Assembly: GCA_017545535.1 (NCBI GenBank)
Contig: JAFWMS010000003.1
Coordinates: 41,991-105,990 of the forward strand
Reading direction: 5' to 3'
DNA: 64,000 bases
Source: Clostridia bacterium
GTDB taxonomy: Bacteria; Bacillota; Clostridia; Christensenellales; CAG-138
The notes under the pieces are model-generated. The model saw only the letters and a program-made list of their open reading frames with translations, was not told the DNA's origin and did no database searches. Shown here piece by piece: positions 38,008 through 58,978 of this stretch; the stretch's first letter is position 1, and every line of letters begins with the position of its first letter. A program made the position numbers and the translations under genes.

Positions 38008-38084
38008 TGGAGCTGGTGATGGGAGTCGGACCCATGAACCTCGTCATTACCAATGACGCGCTCTACCAACTGAGCTACACCAGC
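38008..38084 (-). tRNA. tRNA-Thr (anticodon GGT), atypical T-loop
   Basis: Hand-folded as GCTGGTG/CACCAGC acceptor, GCTC/GAGC D stem, CGTCA-TTGGTAA-TGACG anticodon arm and ATGGG-TCCGACT-CCCAT T arm, with encoded CCA. It is 77 nt long, with C at position 55 and a 6-nt variable region. Confidence 0.75.
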
Positions 38085-43188: not shown

Positions 43189-43264
43189 GGGAGCATAGCT
43201 CAGCTGGGAGAGCACTTGCCTTACAAGCAAGGGGTCACAGGTTCGAGCCCTGTTGTTCCCACCA
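43189..43264 (+). tRNA. tRNA-Val (TAC)
   Basis: Hand-folded cloverleaf. GGGAGCA/TGTTCCC acceptor, CTTGC-CTTACAA-GCAAG anticodon arm, ACAGG-TTCGAGC-CCTGT T arm, CCA encoded. Confidence 0.92.
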
Positions 43265-43271
43265 GATATTC

Positions 43272-43348
43272 GGCCCGGTAGTACAGTTGGTTAGTACGCC
43301 AGCCTGTCACGCTGGAGGTCAGGGGTTCGAGCCCCCTCCGGGTCGCCA
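43272..43348 (+). tRNA. tRNA-Asp (GTC)
   Basis: GGCCCGG/CCGGGTC acceptor, CCAGC-CTGTCAC-GCTGG anticodon arm, AGGGG-TTCGAGC-CCCCT T arm, CCA encoded. Confidence 0.92.
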
Positions 43349-43352
43349 ATGT

Positions 43353-43428
43353 GCCTCGGTAGCTCAGTTGGTAGAGCAAGGGACTGAAAATCCCTGTGTC
43401 GGTGGTTCAAGTCCACTCTGAGGCACCA
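43353..43428 (+). tRNA. tRNA-Phe (GAA)
   Basis: GCCTCGG/CTGAGGC acceptor, AGGGA-CTGAAAA-TCCCT anticodon arm, GGTGG-TTCAAGT-CCACT T arm, CCA encoded. Confidence 0.92.
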
Positions 43429-43436
43429 TTTTTTTT

Positions 43437-43512
43437 GCGGGAATAGCTCATTTGGTAGAGCGCAGCCTTGCCAAGGCTGAGGTGGCGGGTTCGAGCCCCG
43501 TTTCCCGCTCCA
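43437..43512 (+). tRNA. tRNA-Gly (GCC)
   Basis: GCGGGAA/TTCCCGC acceptor, CAGCC-TTGCCAA-GGCTG anticodon arm, GCGGG-TTCGAGC-CCCGT T arm, CCA encoded. Confidence 0.92.
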
Positions 43513-43515
43513 TAT

Positions 43516-43589
43516 GGCGCCATAGCCAAGCGGTAAGGCACGGGTCTGCAAAACCCTCATCCCCGGTTCGATTCCGGGTGGCGCCTCCA
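43516..43589 (+). tRNA. tRNA-Cys (GCA)
   Basis: GGCGCCA/TGGCGCC acceptor, CGGGT-CTGCAAA-ACCCT anticodon arm, CCCGG-TTCGATT-CCGGG T arm, CCA encoded. 74 nt. Confidence 0.92.
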
Positions 43590-44713: not shown

Positions 44714-45010
44714 ATGCGGATCCTTGTTTACGGCGCCGGGGTGATCGGTGCCAATCTGGCGGCGGACCTTTTTGCTTCCGGGAAAGACGTGACCCTCCTG
44801 ACGAGAGGCCCGTGGGCGGATACCTTGGAGAGGGACGGCTTGACCGTCAAGCCGGCGTTCTCCCTGCGAAAAAGGACGTATCACATCCCGATCATCCGTG
44901 AACTGAAAAGCTACGACGCCTACGACGTGATCTTTGTGGTCATGCGCTTTACTCAGTATCCCACCTATCGGAAGCTGGAAGCGGACGCCAAAGAGCATTT
45001 GAAGGGCTGA
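44714..45010 (+). pseudogene. 3'-truncated ketopantoate reductase (ApbA/PanE N-terminal domain only)
   Basis: MRILVYGAGVIGANLAADL... is a Rossmann N-terminus. It is only 98 aa where the family is about 300 aa, and the last ~17 aa are unrelated. Confidence 0.65.
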
Positions 45011-45039: not shown

Positions 45040-45747
45040 ATGGGAGGCATTGCATACGGCGTGGGCGTAGGCCCGGGCGATCCGGAGCTGATGACGCAGA
45101 AGGCCATCCGGATCCTGCGGGAGAACGACGTGATTGCCGTCCCGGGCAAGGAGGCTAAGGAATCCATCGCATATACGATCGCCGCGGCCGTGGTGCCGGA
45201 ACTCGTTCAAAAGGAGCTGGTGCCGATCCCCATGCCCATGGTGCGGGATCGAAAGCTTCTGCAAGAGGCCCATATCAGGGGCGTTCGCCTGATAGAGAGC
45301 TATCTGGATCAAGGCAAAAACGTGATCTATCTCACCCTGGGCGACCCGTCCATCTACTGCTCCTTCAGCTATCTGCAGCAGATCCTGCTGTCGGACGGGT
45401 ATGCCGTGGAGACGGTCCCGGGCGTCCCCTCCTTCTGCGCGGCTGCGGCCAGGTTGAACCTGCCCCTGACGGAGTGGGACGAGCCTATGCATCTGATGCC
45501 CGCCGCCCATGAAACGAGAGAAACGCTCCAAGAGCCCGGCACCTATGTCTTGATGAAATCCTCCAGCTCCATGGCGGAGACGAAAGAGCGGCTTCGAAAC
45601 AGCAAAAAAGAGGTTTTCGCCGTGGAAAACTGCGGGATGGGTACGGAAAGGATATTCCGTGGCGTGGAAGAGATCCCCGATGATGCCGGTTATTTATCTT
45701 TGCTCATCGCCAAGGACCCAGTGGGGACGGACCATGCTGCGTCCTAA
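45040..45747 (+). CDS. cbiL: Cobalt-precorrin-2 C20-methyltransferase
   Basis: 235 aa with YGVGVGPGDPELMT, TLGDPSIY and VPGVPSF tetrapyrrole-methylase motifs in the CbiL arrangement. Confidence 0.88.
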   Translation: MGGIAYGVGVGPGDPELMTQKAIRILRENDVIAVPGKEAKESIAYTIAAAVVPELVQKELVPIPMPMVRDRKLLQEAHIRGVRLIESYLDQGKNVIYLTLGDPSIYCSFSYLQQILLSDGYAVETVPGVPSFCAAAARLNLPLTEWDEPMHLMPAAHETRETLQEPGTYVLMKSSSSMAETKERLRNSKKEVFAVENCGMGTERIFRGVEEIPDDAGYLSLLIAKDPVGTDHAAS

Positions 45748-45829
45748 GCCTGAACCGCAACGTCCCTGGACGTGATTTGATCTTGGGTGCTGGTTGCTTT
45801 GGAGGCTCGTTTTCATTTAGGAGGATAGT

Positions 45830-46345
45830 ATGCGGATCGAAACGGAACGATTGCTGATCACGGACTTTCGGGCGGACATGGCCGAGGCCGTGCATAGGAA
45901 CTCTTTGGACGAGGACAACCGGCGCTTCGTGCCGGACGAGGTCTTCGAGACGGTGGAGGAGGCCCGGGAGGTGGTGACCTTCCTCATGGGCCGGTACGGC
46001 GGGACGGAGGGGCCCTTCGTCCATCCCATTCTCTTGAAGTCCGGGGAAAATATCGGCTACGTGCAGCTGGTGAAGCTGCCGGAGGGCTGGGAGCTGGGGT
46101 ACCATGTGGCCAAGGACCATACCAACCGAGGCTACGCCACGGAGGCCGTGCGGGCCTTTTTGCCGGCCATGGCGGAAAGGATGGGGCTCTCCCAGATCCT
46201 CGGCATCTGCCTGGCGGAGAACCACGCCTCCGCCCGGGTGATGGAAAAGTGCGGCTTCCGACCTTTGTTCCGAGGCGTCGGCCCCTATCAGGGCGCGCAA
46301 CGGGAGATCATCAAAAACGCATGGTACCCTGCAGCCCAAGCTTAG
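45830..46345 (+). CDS. GNAT-family N-acetyltransferase (RimJ/RimL-like)
   Basis: 171 aa with RLLITDF and the acetyl-CoA motif HTNRGYATEAVRAFL. AGGAGG RBS. Confidence 0.85.
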   Translation: MRIETERLLITDFRADMAEAVHRNSLDEDNRRFVPDEVFETVEEAREVVTFLMGRYGGTEGPFVHPILLKSGENIGYVQLVKLPEGWELGYHVAKDHTNRGYATEAVRAFLPAMAERMGLSQILGICLAENHASARVMEKCGFRPLFRGVGPYQGAQREIIKNAWYPAAQA

Positions 46346-46366
46346 CTCGATGACGGCCCTTTTGTC

Positions 46367-46396
46367 TTGACAGCGGGGCTGATAAGGGGATATACT
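46367..46396 (+). promoter_or_regulatory. Promoter of the cobalamin riboswitch transcript
   Basis: TTGACA (46367-72), 18-nt spacer, TATACT (46391-96). Confidence 0.7.
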
Positions 46397-46402
46397 GTAA
46401 CA

Positions 46403-46600
46403 AAATTGAATAGTCAGTCGGTGCCCTTGCCGCCCGGAGGGAGGCAAGGGGTAAAAGGGAAACAGGTGAAAGGCCTGTGCGATCTCGTCACTGTATGCGG
46501 AAGAGTCCGTCGGGCGCCAAAAGGCGCGGCCACTGGGAAACCGGGAAGGCGATGGGCGAAGCGCCGCGAGCCAGGAAACCTGCCGTCTGTCGGTACGGGA
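46403..46600 (+). ncRNA. Cobalamin (B12) riboswitch
   Basis: Conserved blocks GGTGCC (46420), AAAAGGGAA (46453), AGGTGAAA (46464) and GCCACTGGGAAACCGGGAAGGC (46529). B12 box AGCCAGGAAACCTGCC (46569-84). It lies upstream of corrinoid uptake and biosynthesis genes. Confidence 0.9.
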
Positions 46601-46783
46601 AAAGATGTTTTCCAGATCACGAGGGATTGATCGTGTACCATGCTCCCGCTTTGGGGCGCTCTTTACACGCAGTCTCTTTGCCAGCAGGTGAAGAGCTTTT
46701 TTCGTGCCGTGGGTTTCGCTGATGTACCTATTATATACATCGGGGGACGCTCGGGCGTCCCAATAAAAAATGAGGAGGAACCT

Positions 46784-49459
46784 ATGAAAAGAAAGATCGC
46801 ACTGTTTCTGGCTCTCTTCATGCTGCTCTCCGTCAGCATGATCGCCCTGCCCGCCTTCGCCGAGGAGGGTGAGGAGCCCTCTGAGGCCGACAAGGAAGCC
46901 GCCGCCCAGGTGGCCGCCCTCATCGACGCCATCTACGTCCAGGAGCGGACCGAGACCACCGACGCGGACTGCGCCGCCGCCAAGGCCGCCTGGGACGCTC
47001 TCACCGACGCCCAGAAGGAGTTGGTGGAAGGCGAGGAAGCCGACCCCGATTACTTCGGCCGTGACACCGGCGACGCCTCCAAGGACGATCCCCGGAACGC
47101 CGACGAGATCGGCGAAAATGAGCTCCTGGTGGTGAGCTTCGGCACCTCCTTCAACGACAGCCGGGCCGAGGATATCGGCGGCATCGAGAAGGCTCTCGAA
47201 GCGGCGTTCCCTGAGTGGGCCGTCCGCCGGGCCTTCACCGCCCAGATCATCATCAACCACGTCCAGGCCAGGGATGGAGAGTTCATCGACAACATGGACC
47301 AGGCCCTGGAGCGGGCCGTGAAGAACGGTGTCAAGAACCTGATCATCCAGCCCACCCACCTCATGCACGGCGCCGAATACGACGAGCTGGTGGAAGCGGT
47401 CGCCAAGTATGCCGACAAGTTCGCCACCGTCGCCGTGGCCGAGCCCCTGCTGGGCAAGGTGGGCGCTGACGCCGCCGCCGTGAACAACGACAAGCTGACT
47501 GTGGCTGAAGCCGTGGTGAACGAAGCCGTGAAGGAGGCCGGGTTCTCCAGCCTTCATGCCGCCGAGAAGGACGGTACCGCCTTCGTGTTCATGGGCCACG
47601 GCACCGCCCACGCCGCCAAGGTCACCTATTCCCAGATGCAGACCATGATGAAGGAACTGGGCTATAAGAACGTGTTCATCGGCACCGTGGAAGGCGAGCC
47701 TGAGGAAACTGCCTGTGAGGAAGTCATCAAGGCCGTCAGCGAAGCGGGCTACACCAAGGTCATCCTGCGGCCGTTGATGGTCGTCGCCGGCGACCATGCC
47801 AACAACGATATGGCCGATCCTGAGGACGAGGAGTCCTGGTTCAGCATGTTCACCGCTTCCGGCCTCTTCGCCGACATCCAGTGTCAGATCGCCGGCCTTG
47901 GCCGGATCGAAGCCGTCCAGAAGCTCTATGTGAACCATACTCAGGCCGCCATCTATGCCATGGCTCCCGCCAATGAGACCGACGCGGAGGCTGCCGCTCG
48001 GGTGGCCGCCCTCATCGACGCCATCTACGTCCAGGAGCGGACCGAGGCCACCGACGCTCAGTGCGCCGCCGCCAAGGCCGCCTGGGACGCCCTGACCGAC
48101 GAACAGAAGGAGTTGGTGGAGGGCGAGGAAGCCGACCCCGATTACTTCGGCCGCGACACCGGCGACGCCTCCAAGGACGATCCTAGGAACAAGAACGGCA
48201 TCGGCGAAAACGAGCTGTTGGTGGTGAGCTTCGGCACCTCCTTCAACGACAGCCGGGCCGAGGATATCGGCGGCATCGAGAAGGCCCTGGTGGAAGCGTT
48301 CCCCGGCTGGGCCGTCCGCCGCGCTTTCACCGCTCAGATCATCATCAACCATGTCCAGGCTCGAGAGGGTGAGTTCATCGACAATATGGACCAGGCCCTG
48401 GAGCGCGCTGTAGCGAACGGCGTGAAGAACCTGCTCGTCCAGCCCACCCACCTCATGCACGGCGCCGAATACGACGAGTTGGTGGAAGCCCTCAACAAGT
48501 ACGCCGACAAGATGAATATCGTGGTGGCCGAGCCTCTGCTAGGCGAGGTCGGCGCGGATGCCACCGTGATCAACGCCGACAAGGAAGCCGTGGCCAAGGC
48601 CGTGGTGGACGCTGCCGTGAAGGCCGCCGGCGCAGAGTCCCTGGAAGCGCTTGAAAAGGACGGCGTGGCCCTGGTGTTCATGGGCCACGGCACCGCTCAC
48701 GTGGCGAAGGTCACCTATTCCCAGATGCAGACCCAGATGAAGGAACTGGGCTATAAGAACGTGTTCATCGGCACCGTGGAGGGCGAGCCCGAGGAGACTG
48801 CCTGCGAGGAAGTCATCAAGGCCGTCAACGAAGCGGGCTACACCAAGGTCATCCTGCGGCCGTTGATGGTCGTCGCCGGCGACCATGCCAACAACGACAT
48901 GGCCGATCCCGAGGACGAGGAGTCCTGGCTCAGCATGTTCACCGCCTCCGGCCTTTTCGCCGACGTCCAGTGCCAGATCGCTGGCCTTGGCCGGATTCCC
49001 GAGGTCCAGGCGCTCTATGTGGCCCACAGCCAGGCCGCCATCGATGAAAAGGGCCTGAAGGTGGAGGCAGCTGCCGCCCCCGCCGCTGTCCTGGCGGACG
49101 GTGTCTACAAAGTCACCTTTAAAACTGACAGCGGCATGTTCCATGTGAACGAGGCCCTTAAGAACCAGGGCACCCTCACTGTGGAGAACGGTAAGATGAC
49201 CATCCATATCAGCCTGGCCTCCAAAAGCATCGTGAACCTGTTCCCCGGTCTCGCCGAGGACGCCAAGAAGGAGGGCGCGGAGCTGCTGCAGCCCACCACC
49301 GACACGGTGAAGTATGACGACGGCACCACCGAGGAAGTCTACGGCTTCGACGTGCCCGTTCCTGTCATCGGCGAGGAGTTCGATCTGGCTCTGGTGGGCA
49401 AGAAGGGAACCTGGTACGACCACAAGGTCATTGTCACCGATCCCGTGCCTGAGGCGTAA
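46784..49459 (+). CDS. Secreted protein: two tandem CbiK-like (class II chelatase fold) modules plus a C-terminal NEAT-like domain
   Basis: Starts at MKRKIALFLALFMLLSVSMIALPAFA (signal peptide; GAGGAGG RBS). Each module has QPTHLMHGAEYDEL and FMGHGTAH. The tail is DGVYKVTFKTDSGMFHVNE...TLTVENGKMTIHISL. Confidence 0.88.
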   Translation: MKRKIALFLALFMLLSVSMIALPAFAEEGEEPSEADKEAAAQVAALIDAIYVQERTETTDADCAAAKAAWDALTDAQKELVEGEEADPDYFGRDTGDASKDDPRNADEIGENELLVVSFGTSFNDSRAEDIGGIEKALEAAFPEWAVRRAFTAQIIINHVQARDGEFIDNMDQALERAVKNGVKNLIIQPTHLMHGAEYDELVEAVAKYADKFATVAVAEPLLGKVGADAAAVNNDKLTVAEAVVNEAVKEAGFSSLHAAEKDGTAFVFMGHGTAHAAKVTYSQMQTMMKELGYKNVFIGTVEGEPEETACEEVIKAVSEAGYTKVILRPLMVVAGDHANNDMADPEDEESWFSMFTASGLFADIQCQIAGLGRIEAVQKLYVNHTQAAIYAMAPANETDAEAAARVAALIDAIYVQERTEATDAQCAAAKAAWDALTDEQKELVEGEEADPDYFGRDTGDASKDDPRNKNGIGENELLVVSFGTSFNDSRAEDIGGIEKALVEAFPGWAVRRAFTAQIIINHVQAREGEFIDNMDQALERAVANGVKNLLVQPTHLMHGAEYDELVEALNKYADKMNIVVAEPLLGEVGADATVINADKEAVAKAVVDAAVKAAGAESLEALEKDGVALVFMGHGTAHVAKVTYSQMQTQMKELGYKNVFIGTVEGEPEETACEEVIKAVNEAGYTKVILRPLMVVAGDHANNDMADPEDEESWLSMFTASGLFADVQCQIAGLGRIPEVQALYVAHSQAAIDEKGLKVEAAAAPAAVLADGVYKVTFKTDSGMFHVNEALKNQGTLTVENGKMTIHISLASKSIVNLFPGLAEDAKKEGAELLQPTTDTVKYDDGTTEEVYGFDVPVPVIGEEFDLALVGKKGTWYDHKVIVTDPVPEA
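46896..49040 (+). repeat. In-frame tandem duplication (period 1092 bp) inside the CDS
   Basis: GTGGCCGCCCTCATCGACGCCATCTACGTCCAGGAGCGGACCGAG occurs at 46910 and 48002. High identity continues for about 1.05 kb. Confidence 0.9.
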
Positions 49460-49488
49460 GCTAAGGCACGGAGTATTCTCTATCCCAA

Positions 49489-49518
49489 GCGGCGCGGCGG
49501 CTTCGGCTGCCGTGCCGC
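49489..49518 (+). other. 13-bp GC hairpin with TTCG loop between cistrons
   Basis: GCGGCGCGGCGGC-TTCG-GCTGCCGTGCCGC (two G-T pairs). No T-run follows. Confidence 0.6.
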
Positions 49519-49567
49519 ATAGCTGTATATATAATAGACAAGTTTTCGGACGGAAAGGACGCTCTAT

Positions 49568-49975
49568 ATGAGGAAAAAGACGCTTTGTTTGGCTCTCGCG
49601 ATCCTGTTGCTGGTGCTTGGTCTGGGCTGTGGGAAGAAAGCTAAGGCCCTGGCGGACGGGACCTATACCGTGACCGTCATCCTCACCGGCGGCACGGGCC
49701 GGGCGTCCATCGCTTCCCCGGTGCAGCTCACGGTGCAGGCCGGCAAGATCAGCGCGACCCTCGTCTGGAGCAGCCCCAACTACGACTACATGAAGGTGAA
49801 CGGCGTCCGCTATGACGCCGTGATCGAGGACGGCCACTCCGTGTTCACCGTGCCCGTAGCTTCCCTGGAGGAACCCCTCCCTGTGGTGGCGGACACGGTG
49901 GCCATGAGCACGCCCCACGAGATCGAGTATACGATCACTTTCGATCCCGCCACTCTGGCGGCGGAAACCAAATGA
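49568..49975 (+). CDS. Lipoprotein with NEAT-like domain
   Basis: Lipobox LVLGLGCG. LADGTYTVTV...LTVQAGKISATLVW parallels the C-terminal domain of the upstream protein. Confidence 0.8.
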   Translation: MRKKTLCLALAILLLVLGLGCGKKAKALADGTYTVTVILTGGTGRASIASPVQLTVQAGKISATLVWSSPNYDYMKVNGVRYDAVIEDGHSVFTVPVASLEEPLPVVADTVAMSTPHEIEYTITFDPATLAAETK

Positions 49976-51138
49976 AGCCGATGATGAAAAAGCTTCTCTG
50001 TCTGTTGCTGTTCATGTCCCTGGCCTTGGGGATTCTTTTGGGCTGCGCAGGGAAGAGGCCGATTGCCAGGGAAGCTACAGGTCCGGACTGGAGCTCTCTG
50101 ACCGTACGGCGGCAGGTGCCCCTTCAAAGCGCCACCCAGTTTTCCCTGACGGAATACGATCAGGGCTACACTCTGCTGGACATTCCCACCAGCGGCCGGT
50201 TTTTGCTGGTGCCGGAGGGAGTGAGCGTGCCCAAGGGACTGGATGAGGACATCGTCCCTCTGCTCGCGCCCCTTGATCGGATGTATCTGGCCGCTACCTC
50301 CGCCATGGACTTCTTTCGGGCCCTGAACTGCGTCGGCGATATCCGTCTGTCCGGCACGGACAAAAGCGGCTGGTACATCGAGGAAGCCAAGGAAGCTCTC
50401 GAGAACGGTAGCATGGTCTTCGCGGGCAAATACAGCGCCCCGGACTACGAGCTGATCTTTGCGGAAAAGTGCGATTTGGCCATCGAGTCCACCATGATCT
50501 ATCACAGCCCCGAGGTGAAGGAACAGCTGGAGAAGCTGGGCGTCCCCGTGCTGGTGGAACGGTCCAGCTACGAGCAGGACCCCCTGGGCCGTATGGAATG
50601 GGTGAAGGTCTACGGGGCCCTGGTGGGGAAGCTTTCGGAGGCGGAAGCCCTGTTCGATCAGGAGGTTTCGGCGGTGGCGCCCTTGCTGGACCAGCCCAGG
50701 ACGGATAAGACCGTGGCCTTCTTTTACATCACCACCACCGGCACTGTGAACGTGCGCAAGAGCGACGACTACGTGCCGCGGATGATCGCCCTGGCCGGGG
50801 GGACCTACGCCTTCCCGGACCTCAGCAGCGGCAGCGCCCTGTCCACCGTGAACATGACCATGGAATCCTTCTACGACGGGGCCAGAGACGCGGATCTGCT
50901 CATCTACAACAGCACCATCGACGGGGAGCTGTTCACGTTGGACGAACTGCTGCAGAAGAGCGCCTTTTTGAAGGACTTCAAGGCCGTTCAAAATGGGAAC
51001 GTGTGGTGTACGGGCAAGAACCTGTTCCAGGAACCCATGGGCCTGGGCAAGCTCATCTTGGACATGCACCGGGTGCTGACGGAGGATGCGCCCGGGGAGC
51101 TCACGTATCTGCATAAACTCACGGGAGGCGCGAACTGA
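49972..51138 (+). CDS. ABC substrate-binding lipoprotein (BtuF/siderophore type, TroA-like)
   Basis: Lipobox LLGCAG. 388 aa with the cluster-A SBP pattern. ATGA coupling to the upstream gene. Confidence 0.85.
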   Translation: MKPMMKKLLCLLLFMSLALGILLGCAGKRPIAREATGPDWSSLTVRRQVPLQSATQFSLTEYDQGYTLLDIPTSGRFLLVPEGVSVPKGLDEDIVPLLAPLDRMYLAATSAMDFFRALNCVGDIRLSGTDKSGWYIEEAKEALENGSMVFAGKYSAPDYELIFAEKCDLAIESTMIYHSPEVKEQLEKLGVPVLVERSSYEQDPLGRMEWVKVYGALVGKLSEAEALFDQEVSAVAPLLDQPRTDKTVAFFYITTTGTVNVRKSDDYVPRMIALAGGTYAFPDLSSGSALSTVNMTMESFYDGARDADLLIYNSTIDGELFTLDELLQKSAFLKDFKAVQNGNVWCTGKNLFQEPMGLGKLILDMHRVLTEDAPGELTYLHKLTGGAN

Positions 51139-52145
51139 TGGAGAAACGGACCCGCCTCTGGATCGGTTTCGGAGGGCTTTTGGTGGCCCTGCTGCTGCTG
51201 ATCGTCTGGAACGTCAACGCCGGGAGCGTCCACGTGACCCCGGGGGAGATCCTGTCCATCCTGTGGGGCAAGGGGGGCGATGGGGCCGTCATCGTCCGCG
51301 GCATCCGCCTGCCCCGCATCTTTGCCGCCGCGCTGCTGGGCGGGGCCTTGGCCCTGTCCGGCTTTTTGCTGCAGACCTTTTTTGCCAACCCCATCGCGGG
51401 GCCCTTCATCCTGGGCATCTCCTCGGGGGCGAAGCTGATCCTTTCGCTGACCCTCATCGTCTTCCTCTCCCGGGGGGTGGCGGTGGGGTCCCTGGCCCTC
51501 ATCGTGGCCTCCTTCTGCGGAGCCATGCTGTCCATGGGCTTCGTGCTGCTCATCTCCTCGAAGGTGAAGCGCATGTCGCTCCTCATCATCTCCGGCGTCA
51601 TGATCGGCTATATCTGTTCCGCCGTCACGGACTTCGTCATCACCTTTGCCGACGACGCCAACATCATCAACCTGCACCACTGGTCATTGGGCAGCTTTTC
51701 CGGCATCACCTGGGGCAACGTAGGCGTCATGGCCGCGGTGATCCTGCCGGCCCTCGTCCTCGCCTTTCTGCTCAGCAAGCCCATCGGCGCCTATCAGCTG
51801 GGGGAGGTCTACGCCCAGAACATGGGCGTAAACATCCGGCTGTTCAGGGCGGTGCTGATCCTTTTATCCAGCGTCCTGTCCGCCGCGGTCACGGCCTTTG
51901 CCGGGCCCATCTCCTTCGTGGGTGTGGCGGTGCCCCACATCGTCCGCACCGTTTTCAAGACCGCCAAGCCCCTCATCATGATCCCCGCCTGCTTTTTGGG
52001 CGGAGCGGTGTTCTGCCTCCTTTGTGACCTCATCGCCCGGACGGCCTTCGCGCCCACGGAGCTGTCCATCAGCTCCGTCACCGCCCTGTTCGGCGCGCCG
52101 GTGGTGATCCTGGTCATGCTCAGGCGGCAGAAGGAAAACCTGTAA
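51138..52145 (+). CDS. FecCD/BtuC-family ABC permease
   Basis: 335 aa with about 9-10 TM segments and FecCD motifs (RLPRIFAAALLGGALALSG). Confidence 0.9.
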   Translation: MEKRTRLWIGFGGLLVALLLLIVWNVNAGSVHVTPGEILSILWGKGGDGAVIVRGIRLPRIFAAALLGGALALSGFLLQTFFANPIAGPFILGISSGAKLILSLTLIVFLSRGVAVGSLALIVASFCGAMLSMGFVLLISSKVKRMSLLIISGVMIGYICSAVTDFVITFADDANIINLHHWSLGSFSGITWGNVGVMAAVILPALVLAFLLSKPIGAYQLGEVYAQNMGVNIRLFRAVLILLSSVLSAAVTAFAGPISFVGVAVPHIVRTVFKTAKPLIMIPACFLGGAVFCLLCDLIARTAFAPTELSISSVTALFGAPVVILVMLRRQKENL

Positions 52146-52154
52146 GGAGGGCCC

Positions 52155-53291
52155 ATGGATACCTGGTACTTGCACACCGAGCATATGGACGTGGGCTACG
52201 ACGGGGTGCCCCTCCTTCGCGACATCGAGATCGGCGTCCGCCGGGGGGAGATATTGACTCTCATCGGCCCCAACGGCTCCGGCAAATCCACCATTCTAAA
52301 GAGCATGATCCGGCAGCTCAGGCTCCTTGCCGGCGTGGTGGTCCTGGATGGACAAACCATGGCCGCCATGAAGGAGGGAGAGATCGCCAAGAAGATGGCC
52401 ATCCTCATGACCGAGCGGCTCCGGGCGGAGCTCATGACCGGCGAGGACGTGGTCTCCACGGGCCGCTATCCCTACACGGGCCGGCTGGGCATCCTCACCA
52501 AGGCCGACCGGGAGAAGGTGCTAGAGGCCATCGCCCTGGTCCACGGGGAAGAGTTCGCAAACCGGCCCTTCGCGCAGCTCAGCGACGGCCAGCGGCAGCG
52601 GCTGCTCCTTGCCAGGGCTGTCTGCCAGGAGCCGGAGGTCATCGTCCTGGACGAGCCCACCTCCTTTTTGGACGTGAAGCACAAGCTGGAGCTGCTGGAG
52701 ATCTTGAAGCGACTGGTCCGGGAGCGGAACGTGGCGGTGGTCATGTCCCTCCACGAGCTGGACCTGGCCCAAAAGATATCCGACCGAGTGGTCTCTGTGA
52801 CCAAGGACGGCGTGGACCGGTGCGATACCCCGGAAAACATCTTTCAAAGCGCCTATATCGAAGCCCTCTACGGCATGGAGAGCGGCAGCTACAACGCCCT
52901 TTTCGGGTCTTTGGAGATGGCGCGGGTATGGGGGGAGCCTCGGGTCTTCGTCATCGGCGGGGGCGGCAGCGGCATCCCCGTCTACCGGGCGCTGCAGCGG
53001 AGGGGCGTTCCCTTTGCCGCGGGCGTCCTGGTTGAGAACGATGTGGACTATTGGGTGGCCCGGGCCCTGGCCGTGGAGACGGTGTCCGTGCCCGCCTTTG
53101 CATCCATCGATGAAGGAGCTGTGGCGAAGGCGCGCGCACTGATCTTAACGTGTGACCACGTTGTCTGCTGCCTGGATACGTTTGGCGAGCTGAACCAGGG
53201 CAACCGCCCATTGCAGGACGAAGCCCAAAGGCAGGGCAAGCTGCTGCCTTTGGAACGTCTTTCGGAGCTGTGGACGGGAGGGGACCGCTGA
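52155..53291 (+). CDS. ABC ATPase (BtuD/FecE-like) with extra ~125-aa C-terminal domain
   Basis: Walker A GPNGSGKST, signature LSDGQRQR, Walker B VIVLDEP. It is followed by a Rossmann-like tail (VFVIGGGGSGIPVY...). Confidence 0.9.
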   Translation: MDTWYLHTEHMDVGYDGVPLLRDIEIGVRRGEILTLIGPNGSGKSTILKSMIRQLRLLAGVVVLDGQTMAAMKEGEIAKKMAILMTERLRAELMTGEDVVSTGRYPYTGRLGILTKADREKVLEAIALVHGEEFANRPFAQLSDGQRQRLLLARAVCQEPEVIVLDEPTSFLDVKHKLELLEILKRLVRERNVAVVMSLHELDLAQKISDRVVSVTKDGVDRCDTPENIFQSAYIEALYGMESGSYNALFGSLEMARVWGEPRVFVIGGGGSGIPVYRALQRRGVPFAAGVLVENDVDYWVARALAVETVSVPAFASIDEGAVAKARALILTCDHVVCCLDTFGELNQGNRPLQDEAQRQGKLLPLERLSELWTGGDR

Positions 53292-54265
53292 TGGGCCTAT
53301 ATGCACTCACCGCTGTATCCGTCTTCGGGGGCTTCCTGCTGGATTGCCTCCTGGGGGACCCCTTAAGCCGGGCTCATCCTGTGGTGCTCATGGGCAAGCT
53401 CATCTCCTTTCTGGAGAAGTCTCTCCGCCCCCGGTTCCCGAAGACGCCCCGGGGGGAGCGGACCGCCGGGACCGTCCTGGCGATCCTTGTTCCGCTTATC
53501 AGCGCGAGCATAGGTTTTTTGCTGCTGTACCTTGCCTGGCGGGTCCATCCCTGGGTCTATTTCGTCCTCAGCGCCTTTTTCTGCTGGCAGTGCTTCGCCG
53601 CCCGGTGCTTGATGACGGAATCGAAGAAGGTCGTTTCCTGCCTGGAAAAGGAGGGCCTGGAGGCCGGCCGCCGTCAGGTCGCCATGCTGGTGGGCCGGGA
53701 CACCGGGCGCCTGAGCGAGGAACAGGTGATCAAGGCCGCGGTGGAGACCGTGGCGGAGAACACCTCCGACGGGGTGGTGGCGCCCCTCTGTTGGATGATC
53801 CTCTTCGGTGCGGTGGGGGGCCTCTTTTACAAGGCTGTGAACACCATGGATTCCATGGTAGGCTATAAGAACGATAGGTATCTCTATTTCGGCCGGACCG
53901 CCGCCAAGCTGGATGACGGGGTGAACTATGTGCCCGCCCGGCTGTCGGCCCTCGCTATGGTGAGCGCGGCCTACCTTTTGAAGCTGGACGGGCCGAATGC
54001 TTGGCGCATCTGGCGGCGGGATAGGCGCAACCACGCGAGCCCCAACTCCGCCCAGACCGAGTCCGTCTGTGCCGGGGCCCTGGGGGTGCAGTTGGGGGGC
54101 AGCGCCAGCTACTTCGGCAAGCTCTTTGCTAAGCCCACCATCGGCGACCCGATCCGGCCCATCGAACGGGCGGATGTGGACCGGGCCTGCCGGCTGATGT
54201 ACGGGACCAGCGGCTTAGTGTTGGTTCTATACAGTGTGATCCTGTTGTTGGGAGGGATGCTATGA
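53291..54265 (+). CDS. cbiB: Adenosylcobinamide-phosphate synthase
   Basis: Starts at MGLYALTAV (TGATG overlap). Motifs DCLLGDP..HPV and NTSDGVVAPL. Confidence 0.9.
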   Translation: MGLYALTAVSVFGGFLLDCLLGDPLSRAHPVVLMGKLISFLEKSLRPRFPKTPRGERTAGTVLAILVPLISASIGFLLLYLAWRVHPWVYFVLSAFFCWQCFAARCLMTESKKVVSCLEKEGLEAGRRQVAMLVGRDTGRLSEEQVIKAAVETVAENTSDGVVAPLCWMILFGAVGGLFYKAVNTMDSMVGYKNDRYLYFGRTAAKLDDGVNYVPARLSALAMVSAAYLLKLDGPNAWRIWRRDRRNHASPNSAQTESVCAGALGVQLGGSASYFGKLFAKPTIGDPIRPIERADVDRACRLMYGTSGLVLVLYSVILLLGGML

Positions 54266-55314
54266 TCCTGGATCGAGGGTATATCCACGGGGGGGACGTC
54301 TATTCCCAGCCCGTCCGGCTGGATTTTTCCGCCAACGTGAACCCTTACGGCGCTCCGGAAGCGGTGAAAGCGGCGGTTCGGGAAGCCGCGTCGAAGTTGT
54401 CCGATTATCCAGACCCCTACTGCGGCCCCCTGCGGGAGAAGCTGGCGGTCCTGAACGGCGTGGATCGGGGAAACGTGATCTGCGGCAACGGGGCGGCGGA
54501 GCTCATCTATCAGTTTGCGGCGGCCCTGAGGCCGAAAAAAGCCCTGATTCCCGTGCCCTCCTTTGCGGACTATGAGGGGGCCCTGGTCGCGGCGGGCTCA
54601 GAACCGATTTTCTACCCCCTGCGGCGGGAGAACGGCTTCTTGCTGACCGAGGAGATCCTGGACCGTATCGGTCCCGATACGGACCTGCTGATGCTCTGCT
54701 CCCCCAACAACCCCACGGGCCGGTCCGTGCCCCGGGCGCTGCTGCTCGCTATCCTGGACCGGTGCCGCAAGACGGGGACCTGGCTTTTTTTGGACGAATG
54801 TTTTTTTGATTTGACCGACGAGGACGAGGCCTTTTCCTTGGCGAACCGCCTGCGGGAGGGGGATAAGGCCTTTCTCCTCAGGGCCTTCACCAAGGCCTAC
54901 GGCATGGCGGGACTGCGCTTGGGCTACGGTCTGTGCAAGGATCGGGACCTGCTGGAAAGGATGTGCCGCCTATCCCAGCCCTGGAACGTGTCCACCCCCG
55001 CTCAGGCGGCGGGAGTGGCGGCCCTGGATCACCCCGAGTGGCCCAAGCGGGCGCGAGAGCTGTTTCAGGGGGAAAAACCCTGGCTGTATGAGCGGTTGAC
55101 GGCCCTGGGATTTGGCGTGCTGCCGGGAGACGCCAACTTTCTGTTCATCACAGGCGTGCCCGGGTTATATGAAAAGCTGCGGGCTCGGGGCGTGCTCATC
55201 CGAGACTGCTCCAACTATCGGGGCTTGCTGCCCGGCGACTGCCGGATCGCCGTCCGTACCCGACGGGAGAACGAGGAACTGCTGAAGACCATGGAGGAAG
55301 CGCTGCGTGTTTGA
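54262..55314 (+). CDS. cobD: L-threonine-O-3-phosphate decarboxylase (class I/II aminotransferase fold)
   Basis: 350 aa, HGGD...DFSANVNP...NPNNPTG...FTKAYGMAGLRLGY, in cbi context. Confidence 0.85.
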   Translation: MILDRGYIHGGDVYSQPVRLDFSANVNPYGAPEAVKAAVREAASKLSDYPDPYCGPLREKLAVLNGVDRGNVICGNGAAELIYQFAAALRPKKALIPVPSFADYEGALVAAGSEPIFYPLRRENGFLLTEEILDRIGPDTDLLMLCSPNNPTGRSVPRALLLAILDRCRKTGTWLFLDECFFDLTDEDEAFSLANRLREGDKAFLLRAFTKAYGMAGLRLGYGLCKDRDLLERMCRLSQPWNVSTPAQAAGVAALDHPEWPKRARELFQGEKPWLYERLTALGFGVLPGDANFLFITGVPGLYEKLRARGVLIRDCSNYRGLLPGDCRIAVRTRRENEELLKTMEEALRV

Positions 55315-56467
55315 AACGGGCATAGAAAGCCATTACGCCCTGGTGGACGGAAAGAAGCTTCGATATGGCTATACCACCGGTACCTGCGCTGCGGCGGCAG
55401 CCAAGGGGGCCACCTTGCTGCTTCTCACGGGCCGTGCGCCAGAGGCGGTGAGTATACACACCCCCAAGGGCATCGATCTTAGGCTGCCTCTGGAGGAAGC
55501 AAGTTCGGACGGGCACAGGGCCCGCTGCGCCGTTCGCAAGTTCAGCGGCGATGATCCGGACGTGACGGACGGGGTGCTGGTCTTTGCTACCGTTCGCATC
55601 AGCGATCTTCCCGGGGTTCGCATCGACGGAGGTGCGGGGGTGGGGCGGGTGACCAAGCCCGGGCTCAAGGTGCCCGTAGGCGCGGCGGCCATCAACCCCG
55701 GTCCTCGGGCCATGATCGCACAGGCGGTGCTGGAGGCCATGGAGGAGACCGAGCCGGTGCCGGGCATGGACGTGGTGATCGAGCTGCCCGAAGGGGCGGC
55801 TCTGGCTCAAAAGACCTTCAACCCCCGACTGGGCATTCAGGGGGGTATCTCCATATTGGGCACCAGCGGCATCGTGGAGCCCATGAGCGAGGCGGCCCTT
55901 ATAGACAGCATCCGCCTGGAGATACGACAGCGCAAGGCCCTGGGGGACGACCGGCTGATCCTGGCCCCGGGGAACTATGGCACGGACTTTTTGAAGGATA
56001 CCTTTTCCATCGGCGAGGAGCGGATCGTCAAAATATCCAACTTCGTGGGCCTCGCCTTGGACGCGGCGGCGGAGGCGGGCTTCCAGGAGGTGCTTCTGGC
56101 GGGCCACATCGGGAAGCTGGTCAAGCTCTCCGGCGGCATCATGAACACCCATTCGAAGGAGGGGGACGGCCGGGCGGAGCTCATGGCCGCCTGCGCTCTG
56201 CGGGCGGGGGCGGACGCCGATACTGGCCGAGCTATCCTCGATTGCGTCACCACCGACGAGATGCTGCGGATCCTCCGGGAGAAAGATTTGATCTCCCCGG
56301 CCATGGAGATCATGGCCCAGCGGATCGAGCTCTATGTGAATGCCCGAGTGAAGGGGCTCTTGACCGTTGGAGTGCTGGTGTTCTCCGACGGCTACGGGCC
56401 CCTGTGCGCCACCGGCCCCGCCAGGGCGTGGCTGAAAAGTATAGACGAAAAGGAGAAAAGACCATGA
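55307..56467 (+). CDS. cbiD: Cobalt-precorrin-5B C1-methyltransferase
   Basis: 386 aa with LRYGYTTGTCAAAAAKGA and GISILGTSGIVEPMS. GTG start overlapping the cobD end. Confidence 0.9.
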   Translation: MFETGIESHYALVDGKKLRYGYTTGTCAAAAAKGATLLLLTGRAPEAVSIHTPKGIDLRLPLEEASSDGHRARCAVRKFSGDDPDVTDGVLVFATVRISDLPGVRIDGGAGVGRVTKPGLKVPVGAAAINPGPRAMIAQAVLEAMEETEPVPGMDVVIELPEGAALAQKTFNPRLGIQGGISILGTSGIVEPMSEAALIDSIRLEIRQRKALGDDRLILAPGNYGTDFLKDTFSIGEERIVKISNFVGLALDAAAEAGFQEVLLAGHIGKLVKLSGGIMNTHSKEGDGRAELMAACALRAGADADTGRAILDCVTTDEMLRILREKDLISPAMEIMAQRIELYVNARVKGLLTVGVLVFSDGYGPLCATGPARAWLKSIDEKEKRP

Positions 56468-57222
56468 TCCATTTTGTGGGCGCGGGCTGCGGAGCGGCGG
56501 ATCTGATCACGGTGCGGGGCAAGCGGCTGTTAGAGGAAGCGGACGTCATCGTCTACGCAGGGTCCCTGGTGAATCCGGCCCTGCTGGATTATAGGAAGGA
56601 CGGCTGCCAGGTGTACGACAGCGCCAAGATGACCTTGGAGGAGGTTCTGAACGTGATGCTGGCGGCGGAGGAAGCGGGAAAGATCACCGTCCGTCTCCAC
56701 ACCGGCGATCCCTGCCTCTACGGGGCCATCCGGGAGCAGATGGACGAATTGGACAAGCGAGGCGTGGCCTACGACTACTGCCCCGGGGTCAGCGCCTTTT
56801 CCGGGGCAGCAGCGGCATTGAAGATGGAGTATACCCTGCCGGAGGTGTCCCAGAGCGTCGTCATCACCCGCATGGCGGGCAGGACCCCCGTGCCGGAGCG
56901 GGAGAGCGTTCGCTCCTTCGCCGCCCACGGGGCCACCATGGTCCTGTTCCTCAGCGCGGGGCTGCTGAAGCAGACCCAGGCGGAGCTGCTGGCCGGGGGC
57001 TATTCCTCCGATACCCCGGCGGCCATCGTCTACAAGGCCAGCTGGCCCGATGAGAAGCGGTGTTTGTGCACCGTGGGGACCCTCGATGACTGCGCCCGGG
57101 AGAATGGCATCTCAAAGATCGCCCTTATCATCGTGGGGAACGCGGTGAAGCAGAGCGGCTATGCCCGCTCCAAGCTCTACGATCCCACCTTCTCCACGGA
57201 ATTTCGAAGGGCCAAGGAGTGA
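56464..57222 (+). CDS. cbiF: Cobalt-precorrin-4 C11-methyltransferase
   Basis: Starts at MIHFVGAGCGAADLITVRG (ATGA overlap). Motifs HTGDPCLYGA and PGVSAF. Confidence 0.9.
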   Translation: MIHFVGAGCGAADLITVRGKRLLEEADVIVYAGSLVNPALLDYRKDGCQVYDSAKMTLEEVLNVMLAAEEAGKITVRLHTGDPCLYGAIREQMDELDKRGVAYDYCPGVSAFSGAAAALKMEYTLPEVSQSVVITRMAGRTPVPERESVRSFAAHGATMVLFLSAGLLKQTQAELLAGGYSSDTPAAIVYKASWPDEKRCLCTVGTLDDCARENGISKIALIIVGNAVKQSGYARSKLYDPTFSTEFRRAKE

Positions 57223-57225
57223 TCT

Positions 57226-58254
57226 ATGGGGATTTGGCTCATCTCCTACACCGCCCGGGGCCGGGCCCTGGCCGCCCGGGTGGCGGACATATTGAAGGAT
57301 TCAGGCCACGACTGCCGGACCTTTGCCCTGCCCAAGTTTTGTGAGGGAGAAGACGAAGCTTTGACTGCCTCTGCCTCAGACTGGGCGGGGGCGGGCTTTG
57401 CCGAGGCGGACGCCCTGATCTTCTGCTGCGCCTCGGGCATCGCCGTCCGAGCCATCGCCCCCCACGTACGGGATAAGCGGCGGGACCCGGCGGTGCTGGT
57501 GCTGGACGAGGGCGGGACCTTCGTCATCCCCCTTTTGAGCGGCCATCTGGGCGGGGCCAACGCTTTGGCGAAGGAGCTGGCAGCAAAGCTCCCTGCCACC
57601 CCCGTTTTGACCACGGCCACAGACGTGAACGGTCTCTTTGCCGTGGACGTGTTCGCCAAGAACAACGATCTGTTCATCGAGGACATGGCCCTCGCCAAGG
57701 CCGTGTCCGCCGCCCTCCTTTCCGGGGAGGCGGTGGGCTTTCGATCCGATCTGCCCGTAGCGGGCGCCCTGCCCAAGGGGCTCGCGGCGGGCAAAGCGGA
57801 TCTGGGCATCCTCGTTTCTTCCTCGGATGAAAAGCCCTTTCCCCGCACCCTGCGGCTCATCCCCCGGCGCTACGCCGTGGGTCTGGGCTGCCGCCGGGGG
57901 AAAGACGAGGCGGCGCTGGAAGCGTTTTTGCGGGAGAATCTGAACCGGTGCGGCGTGGGCCTCCACCAGGTCATGGCCCTTGCCAGCATCGACATAAAAG
58001 GGGACGAGCCGGGCCTGGTGGTCCTGGCCAAGGAGCTGGGGCTGCCCTTCGTCACCTACTCGGCGGAGGAATTGAAGCGCGCGCCCGGGGAGTTCACCCC
58101 CTCTGCCTTCGTGCAGGGGGTGACGGGCGTGGATTCGGTGTGCGAGCGGGCGGCGGTCCTGGCCTCCGGCGGAACGTTGATGGTACGGAAAGTGGCGGAG
58201 AACGGCATGACCTTCGCTCTGGCGAAGAAGGAGGAGGGGATACGATTTGAGTAA
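57226..58254 (+). CDS. cbiG: Cobalt-precorrin-5A hydrolase
   Basis: 342 aa with CASGIAVRAIAP, PLLSGHLGGAN and C-terminal GVDSVCERAA. Confidence 0.88.
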   Translation: MGIWLISYTARGRALAARVADILKDSGHDCRTFALPKFCEGEDEALTASASDWAGAGFAEADALIFCCASGIAVRAIAPHVRDKRRDPAVLVLDEGGTFVIPLLSGHLGGANALAKELAAKLPATPVLTTATDVNGLFAVDVFAKNNDLFIEDMALAKAVSAALLSGEAVGFRSDLPVAGALPKGLAAGKADLGILVSSSDEKPFPRTLRLIPRRYAVGLGCRRGKDEAALEAFLRENLNRCGVGLHQVMALASIDIKGDEPGLVVLAKELGLPFVTYSAEELKRAPGEFTPSAFVQGVTGVDSVCERAAVLASGGTLMVRKVAENGMTFALAKKEEGIRFE

Positions 58255-58978
58255 GCTATTCGTGGTGGGCATCGGCCCCGGCAAGTTCGAGGGCATGACC
58301 CATGAGGCGGCCCGGGCCCTTAATGAAAGCGACGTGATCGTGGGCTACACGGTCTATGTGGATCTGGTGAAGGACCGCTTCCCGGACAAGCAGTATTTGA
58401 CCACCCCCATGCGCCGGGAGGTGGAGCGGGTGGAGCTGGCGCTGCAGGAGGCCGCGGCGGGCAAGACCGTGGCCATGGTCTGCAGCGGCGATCCGGGGGT
58501 CTACGGCATGAGCGGCCTGATAGAGGAGCTGGCGGAGAGGTACCCGGGCGTGGAGGTCAGGACCGTGCCCGGCGTGTCCGCGGTCCTGAGCGGGGCGGCC
58601 ATCCTGGGCGCGCCCCTCATGCACGACTTCGCCGTCGTCAGTTTGAGCGACCTTATGACCCCCTGGCCCACCATCGAAAAGCGGCTCAGGGCGGCGGCCG
58701 GGGCGGATTTCGTCATCTGTCTTTACAACCCCGCCAGCCACAGGCGGAAGGACTACTTGCAGCGAGCCTGCGACGTCGTCCTCGAATCCGCCTCCCCTGA
58801 GACCGTCTGCGGCGTGGCCCAAAACATCGGCCGTGAAGGGGAAAATATCCGCATCCTGACCCTGAAGGAGCTGCGGGATACCCAGGTGGACATGTTCTCC
58901 ACCGTCTTCATCGGCAATTCCCAAACGAAGGTCATCAATGGGAAAATGGTGACGCCCCGGGGGTACGACCATGACTAA
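58247..58978 (+). CDS. cbiH: Cobalt-precorrin-3B C17-methyltransferase
   Basis: 243 aa with VVGIGPG, SGDPGVYGM and VPGVSA. TTG start overlapping cbiG. Confidence 0.88.
   Translation: MSKLFVVGIGPGKFEGMTHEAARALNESDVIVGYTVYVDLVKDRFPDKQYLTTPMRREVERVELALQEAAAGKTVAMVCSGDPGVYGMSGLIEELAERYPGVEVRTVPGVSAVLSGAAILGAPLMHDFAVVSLSDLMTPWPTIEKRLRAAAGADFVICLYNPASHRRKDYLQRACDVVLESASPETVCGVAQNIGREGENIRILTLKELRDTQVDMFSTVFIGNSQTKVINGKMVTPRGYDHD

Follow-up and report, generated by a model that had tools for sequence, protein, structure and literature searches.

What is an exported, duplicated relative of a chelatase doing as the first gene behind a cobalamin riboswitch? The question is raised by a locus of a gut or rumen Clostridia bacterium (GenBank assembly GCA_017545535.1, contig JAFWMS010000003.1, forward-strand positions 41,991 to 105,990), analysed here as one stretch of 64,000 nucleotides (nt), which we call the window; positions below count from its first letter, and features lie on the + strand unless stated otherwise. 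The riboswitch is followed by genes for an exported protein of 891 amino acids (aa) with two CbiK modules and a NEAT-like domain, for a small NEAT-like lipoprotein, and for an ABC importer resembling BtuFCD, a set that we refer to as the cassette. A first-pass annotation, made from the letters alone, had proposed that the exported proteins bind tetrapyrroles or corrinoids outside the cell. The domain models, the linkage to riboswitch and transporter and the export signals described below support this proposal, in which we infer the binding itself, and the cassette is probably an undescribed Gram-positive system that captures B12-type cofactors outside the cell.

An exported protein with two CbiK modules is encoded behind a cobalamin riboswitch

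The presence of a cobalamin riboswitch ahead of the first gene, noted in the first-pass annotation, was confirmed by a full-length match to the Rfam aptamer model RF00174 (46402-46601; model positions 1-189 of 189) at 97.1 bits, far above the gathering score of 31.5 (E 5e-23). A sigma-70-type promoter-like site (TTGACA, 18 nt, TATACT; 46367-46396) agrees with the consensus at 11 of 12 positions and its 3' end lies 5 nt ahead of the aptamer. Between the aptamer and the start codon, a terminator-like hairpin of 9 pairs with a CTTTTTTCGT tail (46674-46705) is a candidate expression platform, and is a pattern match only, of a kind that is no rarer in shuffled sequence. Position 46367, in the -35 box, is also the start of a spurious TTG open reading frame (ORF), and the gene start lies further 3'. 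The true start of the ORF listed from 46640 is the ATG at 46784, with GAGGAGG 5' of it. The gene (46784-49459) encodes a signal peptide, two copies of a leader plus CbiK module and a C-terminal NEAT-like domain, and its 891-aa product is identical to the database protein P0121.

To judge by inspection, residues 1-26 (46784-46861) form a type-I signal peptide with a KRK n-region, a hydrophobic core and a cleavage site between AFA and EE, the N-terminus reading MKRKIALFLALFMLLSVSMIALPAFA and then EE. Relatives of the protein number more than 6000 in the protein collection, and the closest 120 (P0121-P0240; 650-1155 aa long) were examined; the few source names given among them are sirohydrochlorin cobaltochelatase or CbiK. 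An export signal, either a signal peptide or a lipobox, was found at the start of 115 of the 120, the N-termini of the remaining five being truncated or unclear. These data agree with the earlier description of a signal-peptide protein as the first gene after the riboswitch. An AxA signal-peptidase-I site is present in the window's own clade and a lipobox cysteine in most of the other close homologues. The earlier remark that no sortase or cell-wall anchor is visible holds for the 891-aa protein, in which no LPXTG-like motif was found, but does not extend to the family: as far as the sequences tell, the freely secreted, unanchored state is specific to this lineage and most relatives are predicted lipoproteins.

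Pfam CbiK (PF06180) matches the protein twice at full length (445 bits against a gathering score of 26.2, E 9e-134), and both the QPTHLMHGAEY and the FMGHGTAH motif are kept in each module, so that the two complete CbiK-type modules seen at first reading are real. Module 1 (47114-47968) has the class II chelatase fold and is 85-86% identical to module 2 (48206-49042). The repeat extends beyond CbiK itself: between the two halves of the protein, 314 aa align at 86% identity, and the repeat takes in a leader of about 75-80 aa that stands before each module (leader A, 46874-47113; its repeat, leader B, 47969-48205). The leader, which is probably helical, precedes every exported CbiK module among the relatives studied, and its motif, LIDAIYVQERT..AK.AWDALTD.QK..VEGE.ADPDYFGRDTGDAS.DDP, is kept in these 240 modules. 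It had no match in Pfam and no sequence match in the PDB. As a speculation, the acidic, D-rich loop of the leader (ADPDYFGRDTGDAS.DDP) could bind metal.

Among solved structures, module 1 is closest to FetB/IhtB of Porphyromonas gingivalis (9B86, E 2.5e-38), CbiK of Salmonella enterica (1QGO, E 2.5e-35) and CbiK(P) of Desulfovibrio vulgaris (2XVX, E 4e-27). The metal ligands of the module, His272, Glu303 and His338, align with His145, Glu175 and His207 of S. enterica CbiK. Across 239 modules drawn from the 120 closest homologues, these three residues and the QPTH histidine are invariant or almost invariant; the metal site of the exported CbiK is therefore under strong constraint. Both modules together reach 343.7 bits against the NCBIfam CbiK equivalog NF047852, below its cut-off of 400, and no other CbiK-like sequence was found in the window. 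The module is 40% identical to one cytoplasmic clostridial CbiK, a degree of similarity that hints at independent recruitment rather than at a single clade with FetB and CbiK(P).

The C-terminal domain and the following lipoprotein have a NEAT-like fold

The region behind module 2 (49049-49456) had been described as a beta-rich domain of ~120 aa whose pattern resembles NEAT domains, and the next gene as encoding a lipoprotein made of a single homologous domain. The latter statement was borne out. The 135-aa lipoprotein (49568-49975) has a lipobox ending in LGLGC, of which Cys21 is invariant among the relatives aligned, and carries the motifs GGTG, WSS..YDY and TxAMSxPHEIxY; it is remotely homologous to the C-terminal domain by BLASTP (E 8e-4) and by hhalign (89%, E 2e-6). 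AlphaFold2 models of both small domains were built from alignments of their relatives. The C-terminal domain was modelled with a mean predicted local distance difference test score of 90 and the lipoprotein with one of 78; both models are immunoglobulin-like beta-sandwiches of eight predicted strands. When the models were compared to the PDB using Foldseek, the top matches of both were nearly all NEAT domains (E 4e-5 to 7e-4, TM-score 0.5-0.62), among them Hbp2-N2 of Listeria, IsdX1 and IsdX2-N5 of Bacillus anthracis, Shp, IsdH, IsdC, IsdA and IsdB. Both domains thus model as NEAT-like.

At the sequence level the profile of the C-terminal domain weakly matches IsdX2-N5 and IsdX1 (E 0.004-0.01). 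Its invariant SSMFH aligns with ESSRMNRY of IsdX1, a segment that forms the haem-contacting lip of that protein; other invariant residues include D27, M30, F31, H53, W122, Y123, D124 and H125 (numbering of the modelled segment). Scores against Pfam NEAT (PF05031) remained below the gathering score of 32.8, the lipoprotein reaching 25.5 bits and the C-terminal domain 17-22 bits. Such below-threshold matches were obtained for 30 of 32 relatives of the lipoprotein and for 9 of the 25 C-terminal domains compared, and a distant relative with three repeats (P0241) exceeds the threshold at 55 bits. The canonical YxxxY haem-iron motif is absent from both proteins, whose last strands read WYDHKV (C-terminal domain) and HEIEY (lipoprotein); across 226 diverse domains Tyr, His and Met are kept on this strand, but in a non-canonical pattern. 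The proposed resemblance to NEAT therefore stands with respect to predicted fold and structural matches, and falls short with respect to the Pfam threshold and the YxxxY motif. Collectively, these results place both small domains in a divergent branch of the NEAT-like fold with different pocket chemistry, outside Pfam NEAT as curated.

The cassette includes a BtuFCD-like importer and precedes cobalamin biosynthesis genes

The genes after the lipoprotein had been called BtuFCD-like, and their products match Pfam Peripla_BP_2 (E 1e-27), FecCD (E 2e-75) and ABC ATPase (E 3e-27), as that description would have it. The first encodes a BtuF-like class III substrate-binding lipoprotein with the lipobox ILLGC (49972-51138), the start of which overlaps the stop codon of the NEAT-like lipoprotein gene; as a single-sequence query this protein had no match in the PDB. 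A BtuC-like permease (51138-52145) and a BtuD-like ATPase of 378 aa (52155-53291) follow. Their best NCBIfam matches are BtuC (202 bits, below the equivalog cut-off of 334) and the 'corrinoid ABC transporter ATPase' NF007082 (219.9 bits, below the cut-off of 537), respectively. The ATPase has a C-terminal extension of ~130 aa that is covered by the archaeal-type model NF007082, and a homologue (locus L082, described below) has Pfam MJ0874 in this place. Downstream lie the cobalamin biosynthesis genes cbiB, cobD, cbiD, a tetrapyrrole methylase gene, cbiG, a second methylase gene (cbiH-like), cbiJ-cbiET, cbiA and cbiP (53270-63802). These genes are co-oriented and tightly packed and probably share the transcript of the cassette.

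Riboswitch, exported CbiK and importer are linked across Clostridia

The C-terminal domain is present in at least 527 species-representative genomes, most of which belong to gut and rumen Clostridia, Lachnospiraceae among them. Carriers that have been cultured are, for example, Roseburia zhanii, Eubacterium ramulus ATCC 29099, Butyrivibrio hungatei, Petralouisia muris, Parablautia muri, Waltera hominis and Pseudoflavonifractor. The proteins of the window and a riboswitch profile (nhmmer) were mapped onto the 80 loci that matched the domain best. The commonest order was riboswitch, leader-CbiK-NEAT-like domain protein, NEAT-like lipoprotein, BtuF, BtuC and BtuD. A cobalamin riboswitch on the same strand was found upstream in 65 of the 66 loci with enough sequence, which come from different species (62 by the nhmmer profile, with 3 added by Rfam), and Rfam detected one in each of nine checked loci from named strains or isolates. 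Of 71 loci, 58 encode the NEAT-like lipoprotein downstream of the protein and 57 encode BtuF there, and in ~80% the lipoprotein and a full BtuFCD follow directly; several loci that have no BtuF downstream have BtuFCD upstream, in a permuted operon. In Jingyaoa (L081) a 1115-aa protein stands alone, yet with its own riboswitch. These counts, together with the lipoprotein-BtuF fusions described below, show that homologues are linked to riboswitch and transporter.

The cassette of Roseburia zhanii is followed by CbiP-CobT-CobU-CobS. CbiP stands after BtuD in many loci, and we considered this as a sign that incompletely amidated corrinoids are imported; the idea was rejected, CbiP in R. zhanii being just the start of the usual late-pathway block.

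Domains of the cassette are fused, split and multiplied among relatives

A single polypeptide of ~500 aa combines the NEAT-like lipoprotein, at its N-terminal end, with BtuF in E. ramulus, Butyrivibrio and others. Fusions of one or two NEAT-like domains to a BtuF-like N-terminus were seen at loci L036, L038, L064, L018, L065 and L071 and in the proteins P0248, P0250 and P0275. An exhaustive profile search returned 1520 cluster representatives for the lipoprotein-domain family, many with 2-6 tandem copies of the domain and some fused to Peripla_BP_2. Members with up to six tandem NEAT-like repeats reach 1605 aa.

The C-terminal domain can also be split off. It forms a separate lipoprotein at L082, where it follows a double-CbiK lipoprotein, and at L064, and is a separate gene in E. 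ramulus. The cassette operon at L082 ends with an ordinary CbiK of 266 aa without a signal peptide, and this coexistence indicates that exported and cytoplasmic CbiK have distinct functions. The L082 locus holds two cobalamin riboswitches. The second (9259-9440, - strand) is divergent from the cassette and heads an operon for a methyltransferase, an Opp/Nik-type ABC importer and NifH/NifD-like proteins (Fer4_NifH, Oxidored_nitro); this unusual B12-controlled set possibly serves another tetrapyrrole or metal pathway.

The number of CbiK modules is variable. Upstream of the C-terminal domain, one module is encoded in 65 of the 80 loci, two in 9 and none in 6; three of the six loci of the last group are Butyrivibrio-type, where the CbiK module comes after the domain. 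One relative carries three modules. The two modules of a double-module protein share 71-100% identity (median 85%), compared to 71-79% between lineages, and those at 100% could be assembly artefacts. At the level of sequence this pattern indicates repeated duplication or concerted evolution (gene conversion). By analogy with multi-NEAT haemophores, a labile module number would be typical of domains that set binding capacity.

The cassette may function as an extracellular corrinoid relay

In one form or another, the cassette is likely to serve the acquisition of corrinoids. That the ligand is a corrinoid is suggested by the near-universal riboswitch control, by the setting in cobalamin operons and by the best family matches of the importer, to BtuC and to a corrinoid ABC ATPase, both below equivalog cut-offs; we infer the ligand from regulation and synteny, and the direction of transfer is likewise putative. 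On balance we favour a B12-repressed, extracellular corrinoid relay similar to the Isd and Hbp haem relays. At low intracellular adenosylcobalamin, the riboswitch would permit transcription through the terminator-like hairpin. The outer capture protein, with 1-3 CbiK modules and a NEAT-like domain, would then be exported, secreted in the present lineage and lipid-anchored in most relatives, as would the membrane-anchored NEAT-like lipoprotein and the BtuF-like binding lipoprotein. A corrinoid (a cobamide, cobinamide or an earlier cobalt-corrin) would be bound outside the cell by the outer protein, handed to the NEAT-like lipoprotein and from there to BtuF, and imported by BtuCD, after which it would supply the late or salvage enzymes encoded downstream. 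The CbiK modules may contribute corrinoid binding only, for example through a histidine that coordinates the corrin cobalt, or may also insert or exchange metal. More tentatively, and with some hesitation, we propose that this is the first Gram-positive 'corrinophore' relay, in which a divergent NEAT branch would have switched from haem to corrinoid and an exported, multiplied class II chelatase would act as a capture or metal-editing module that hands its ligand to BtuF.

Several observations weigh against a corrinoid relay. NEAT domains are, to our knowledge, known only as binders of haem or haemoglobin, and the similarity of the modelled domains to NEAT structures is only moderate (TM-score 0.5-0.6, root-mean-square deviation 5-9 Å). 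CbiK(P) of D. vulgaris reportedly binds haem and purifies with it. A profile of ten BtuF-like sequences retrieved from the PDB only Listeria Lmo2184 (E 1e-6) and unnamed binding proteins, so that a BtuF-type and an IsdE-type assignment fit the binding protein equally; Lmo2184 belongs to the Hbp haem-uptake locus. The permease and the ATPase do not reach the BtuC and BtuD equivalog cut-offs in NCBIfam. The invariance of the metal ligands is explained by catalysis no less well than by passive binding. The survey of 80 loci is made up of the best matches to a single domain and is thus not an unbiased sample. Finally, both characterised exported CbiK homologues bind metalated porphyrins (PMC13065792), not corrinoids.

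Some of these points bear on the alternative that the CbiK modules are working extracellular enzymes, which, at the cell surface, would load cobalt into corrinoids or precursors that are metal-free or carry the wrong metal, or would remove or exchange the metal, while the NEAT-like domains and BtuFCD handle substrate or product. This alternative partly coincides with the relay, from which it differs in assuming catalysis instead of capture, and we regard it as unlikely. An enzyme would account for the invariant His/Glu/His site in 239 modules and for the 40% identity to a cytoplasmic clostridial CbiK, and the acidic leader motif might, speculatively, supply it with metal binding. However, a bound corrinoid could just as well have its cobalt coordinated by the conserved histidines, and the variable copy number and very high identity of modules within one protein fit avidity better. 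Nor are we aware that gut or rumen habitats offer a natural supply of corrinoids without metal. The closest solved relative, FetB, provides evidence on both sides: it is a surface lipoprotein with cobalt and manganese chelatase activity on a porphyrin analogue, but it had no reverse chelatase activity with haemin (PMC13065792).

It is improbable that the cassette is an Isd/Iht-type system for acquiring or detoxifying haem or porphyrin, to which the B12 riboswitch would be linked only indirectly. The NEAT-like folds, the binding of haem or porphyrin by exported CbiK homologues and the match of the binding-protein profile to Lmo2184 are all consistent with such a system. It is harder to reconcile with the riboswitch in 65 of 66 loci, the embedding of the cassette in cbi/cob operons, the best scores of permease and ATPase against BtuC and the corrinoid ATPase, and the lack of a canonical YxxxY motif. 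Moreover, transcripts of the iht operon, the haem-type precedent, were unresponsive to haem or iron (PMC12094164).

Slightly less probable again is the import of cobalt ions, or of a cobalt chelate, for B12 synthesis, with CbiK as an extracellular Co2+ binder that feeds the BtuF-like transporter. CbtJKL of Sinorhizobium meliloti is BtuFCD-like yet carries Co(II) (reviewed in PMC7689651), the CbiK metal site is intact, and no CbiMNQO transporter was seen among the window genes scanned, although the window covers just part of the genome. An ion would, however, not need two tetrapyrrole-type folds, the CbiK cleft and the NEAT-like pocket. Late-pathway genes directly follow the cassette in R. zhanii, and no corrin-ring synthesis genes were detected nearby in several other loci, which also argues against this reading. 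The possibility that the protein is simply the cytoplasmic sirohydrochlorin cobaltochelatase of the pathway with a mis-called signal peptide, as its database name and its place in a cbi operon of a window with no other CbiK might suggest, is barely credible and was rejected, given the export signals in 115 of the 120 closest homologues, the fusion to a NEAT-like domain with lipoproteins next to it, the signal-less CbiK that coexists in the L082 operon and the missed NCBIfam cut-off (343.7 against 400).

Other features of the window around the cassette

Two genes on the same strand lie just upstream of the promoter, outside riboswitch control, and encode a CbiL-like tetrapyrrole methylase (45040-45747) and a GNAT acetyltransferase (45830-46345). 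Directly before the cbiL gene, an ORF of 98 aa (44714-45010) matches only the N-terminal half of the ketopantoate reductase PanE/ApbA and is probably the remnant of a truncated gene. A cluster of five tRNA genes (Val-Asp-Phe-Gly-Cys) is located at 43189-43589 on the + strand and a single tRNA-Thr gene at 38008-38084 on the - strand. Very long ORFs of up to 918 aa run antisense to real genes, for example at 45704-48460 on the - strand, and are taken to be artefacts of high G+C content rather than genes.

Novelty and significance

No description of this system was found in the full-text literature searched, in which subscription journals are thinly covered and an early mention in comparative genomics (for instance in the 2003 paper on the B12 regulon) may have escaped notice. 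A review of September 2026 calls extracellular cobamide capture in Gram-positive bacteria 'entirely uncharacterized' (PMC13616437). Three of the elements are already known separately: an exported CbiK beside a FecCD-type importer in Gram-negatives, NEAT relays in the Isd and Hbp systems, and accessory B12-capture surface proteins in Bacteroides. The novelty lies in the joining of CbiK to a divergent NEAT-like branch, in the conserved leader and the multiplied modules, and in the Gram-positive setting and the tight linkage to a riboswitch.

Gut and rumen communities are shaped by competition for B12-type cofactors, and Bacteroidota are so far the only group in which capture outside the cell has been worked out. 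The cassette is a concrete and widespread candidate that is present in cultured species. If the proposed function is correct, the ligand range of NEAT domains would extend beyond haem, and exported CbiK paralogues, the role of which is still debated in Desulfovibrio and Porphyromonas, would gain a physiological one. Annotation would be corrected as well, since the proteins currently carry the names 'sirohydrochlorin cobaltochelatase' or 'hypothetical protein'. A comparative-genomics study encountered cobalt-chelatase annotations in genomes without the pathway, which confuse the genome-based prediction of B12 producers, and a metaproteome study of the human gut detected CbiK (COG4822) and assigned it to Firmicutes. 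Exported CbiK paralogues could explain both observations.

Comparison with known systems

The modules share fold, family and the His/Glu/His site with the sirohydrochlorin cobaltochelatase CbiK of S. enterica (1QGO). Unlike the 891-aa protein, that enzyme is a cytoplasmic, single-domain protein of 264 aa that has no leader, NEAT-like domain or export signal. CbiK(P) of D. vulgaris (2XVX) is, like the protein studied here, an exported CbiK, but it is periplasmic and consists of a single module, with no NEAT-like partners, leader or duplication. D. vulgaris reportedly also has a second, cytoplasmic CbiK. The first-pass annotation had regarded Desulfovibrio as a partial precedent; it is in fact a closer one, for in the Desulfovibrio species of a 2004 comparative-genomics study a B12 element was reported to control cbiK-cbiL together with btuCDF (PMC545781).

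FetB/IhtB of P. gingivalis (9B86) resembles the cassette protein in being an exported CbiK homologue, a surface lipoprotein encoded beside a FecCD-type importer, in which the metal ligands are kept. In contrast to the cassette, it belongs to a Gram-negative system with a TonB-dependent receptor, and its one module comes with neither a leader nor a NEAT-like domain. IhtB/FetB is described as a haem-binding surface lipoprotein (PMC12094164), and the protein has been tied to haem, protoporphyrin IX and its manganese form, with no riboswitch link reported in these two papers (PMC13065792, PMC12094164).

BtuG, BtuH and BtuJ of Bacteroides, surface lipoproteins that capture corrinoids, resemble the cassette in its proposed logic: they are accessory exported binders encoded in riboswitch-controlled B12 loci and form an extracellular relay to the transporter (PMC6143338, PMC8941943, PMC13616437). 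Their folds are unrelated to those of the cassette proteins, none of which matched the corresponding Pfam families (such as DUF4465 for BtuJ), and they act in an outer-membrane context with BtuB.

Known NEAT systems of Firmicutes include the Isd and Hbp haem relays, namely IsdB/H-IsdA-IsdC-IsdEF of Staphylococcus aureus, IsdX1/X2 of B. anthracis and Hbp1/Hbp2-Lmo2184 of Listeria. The cassette differs from them in its control by a cobalamin riboswitch instead of iron and Fur, in its B12-operon setting, in the sub-threshold Pfam NEAT scores, in the lack of YxxxY and of a sortase signal, in its CbiK partners and in its likely ligand, a corrinoid rather than haem. The architecture is nevertheless shared. 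In both, exported NEAT-fold domains are found beside a class III binding lipoprotein of the Peripla_BP_2 family, a FecCD permease and an ATPase, and both have secreted and anchored variants and multi-domain repeats. The fold matches of the cassette domains are best with Hbp2-N2, IsdX1 and IsdX2-N5, and the best PDB relative of the binding protein, Lmo2184, comes from the same group of relays.

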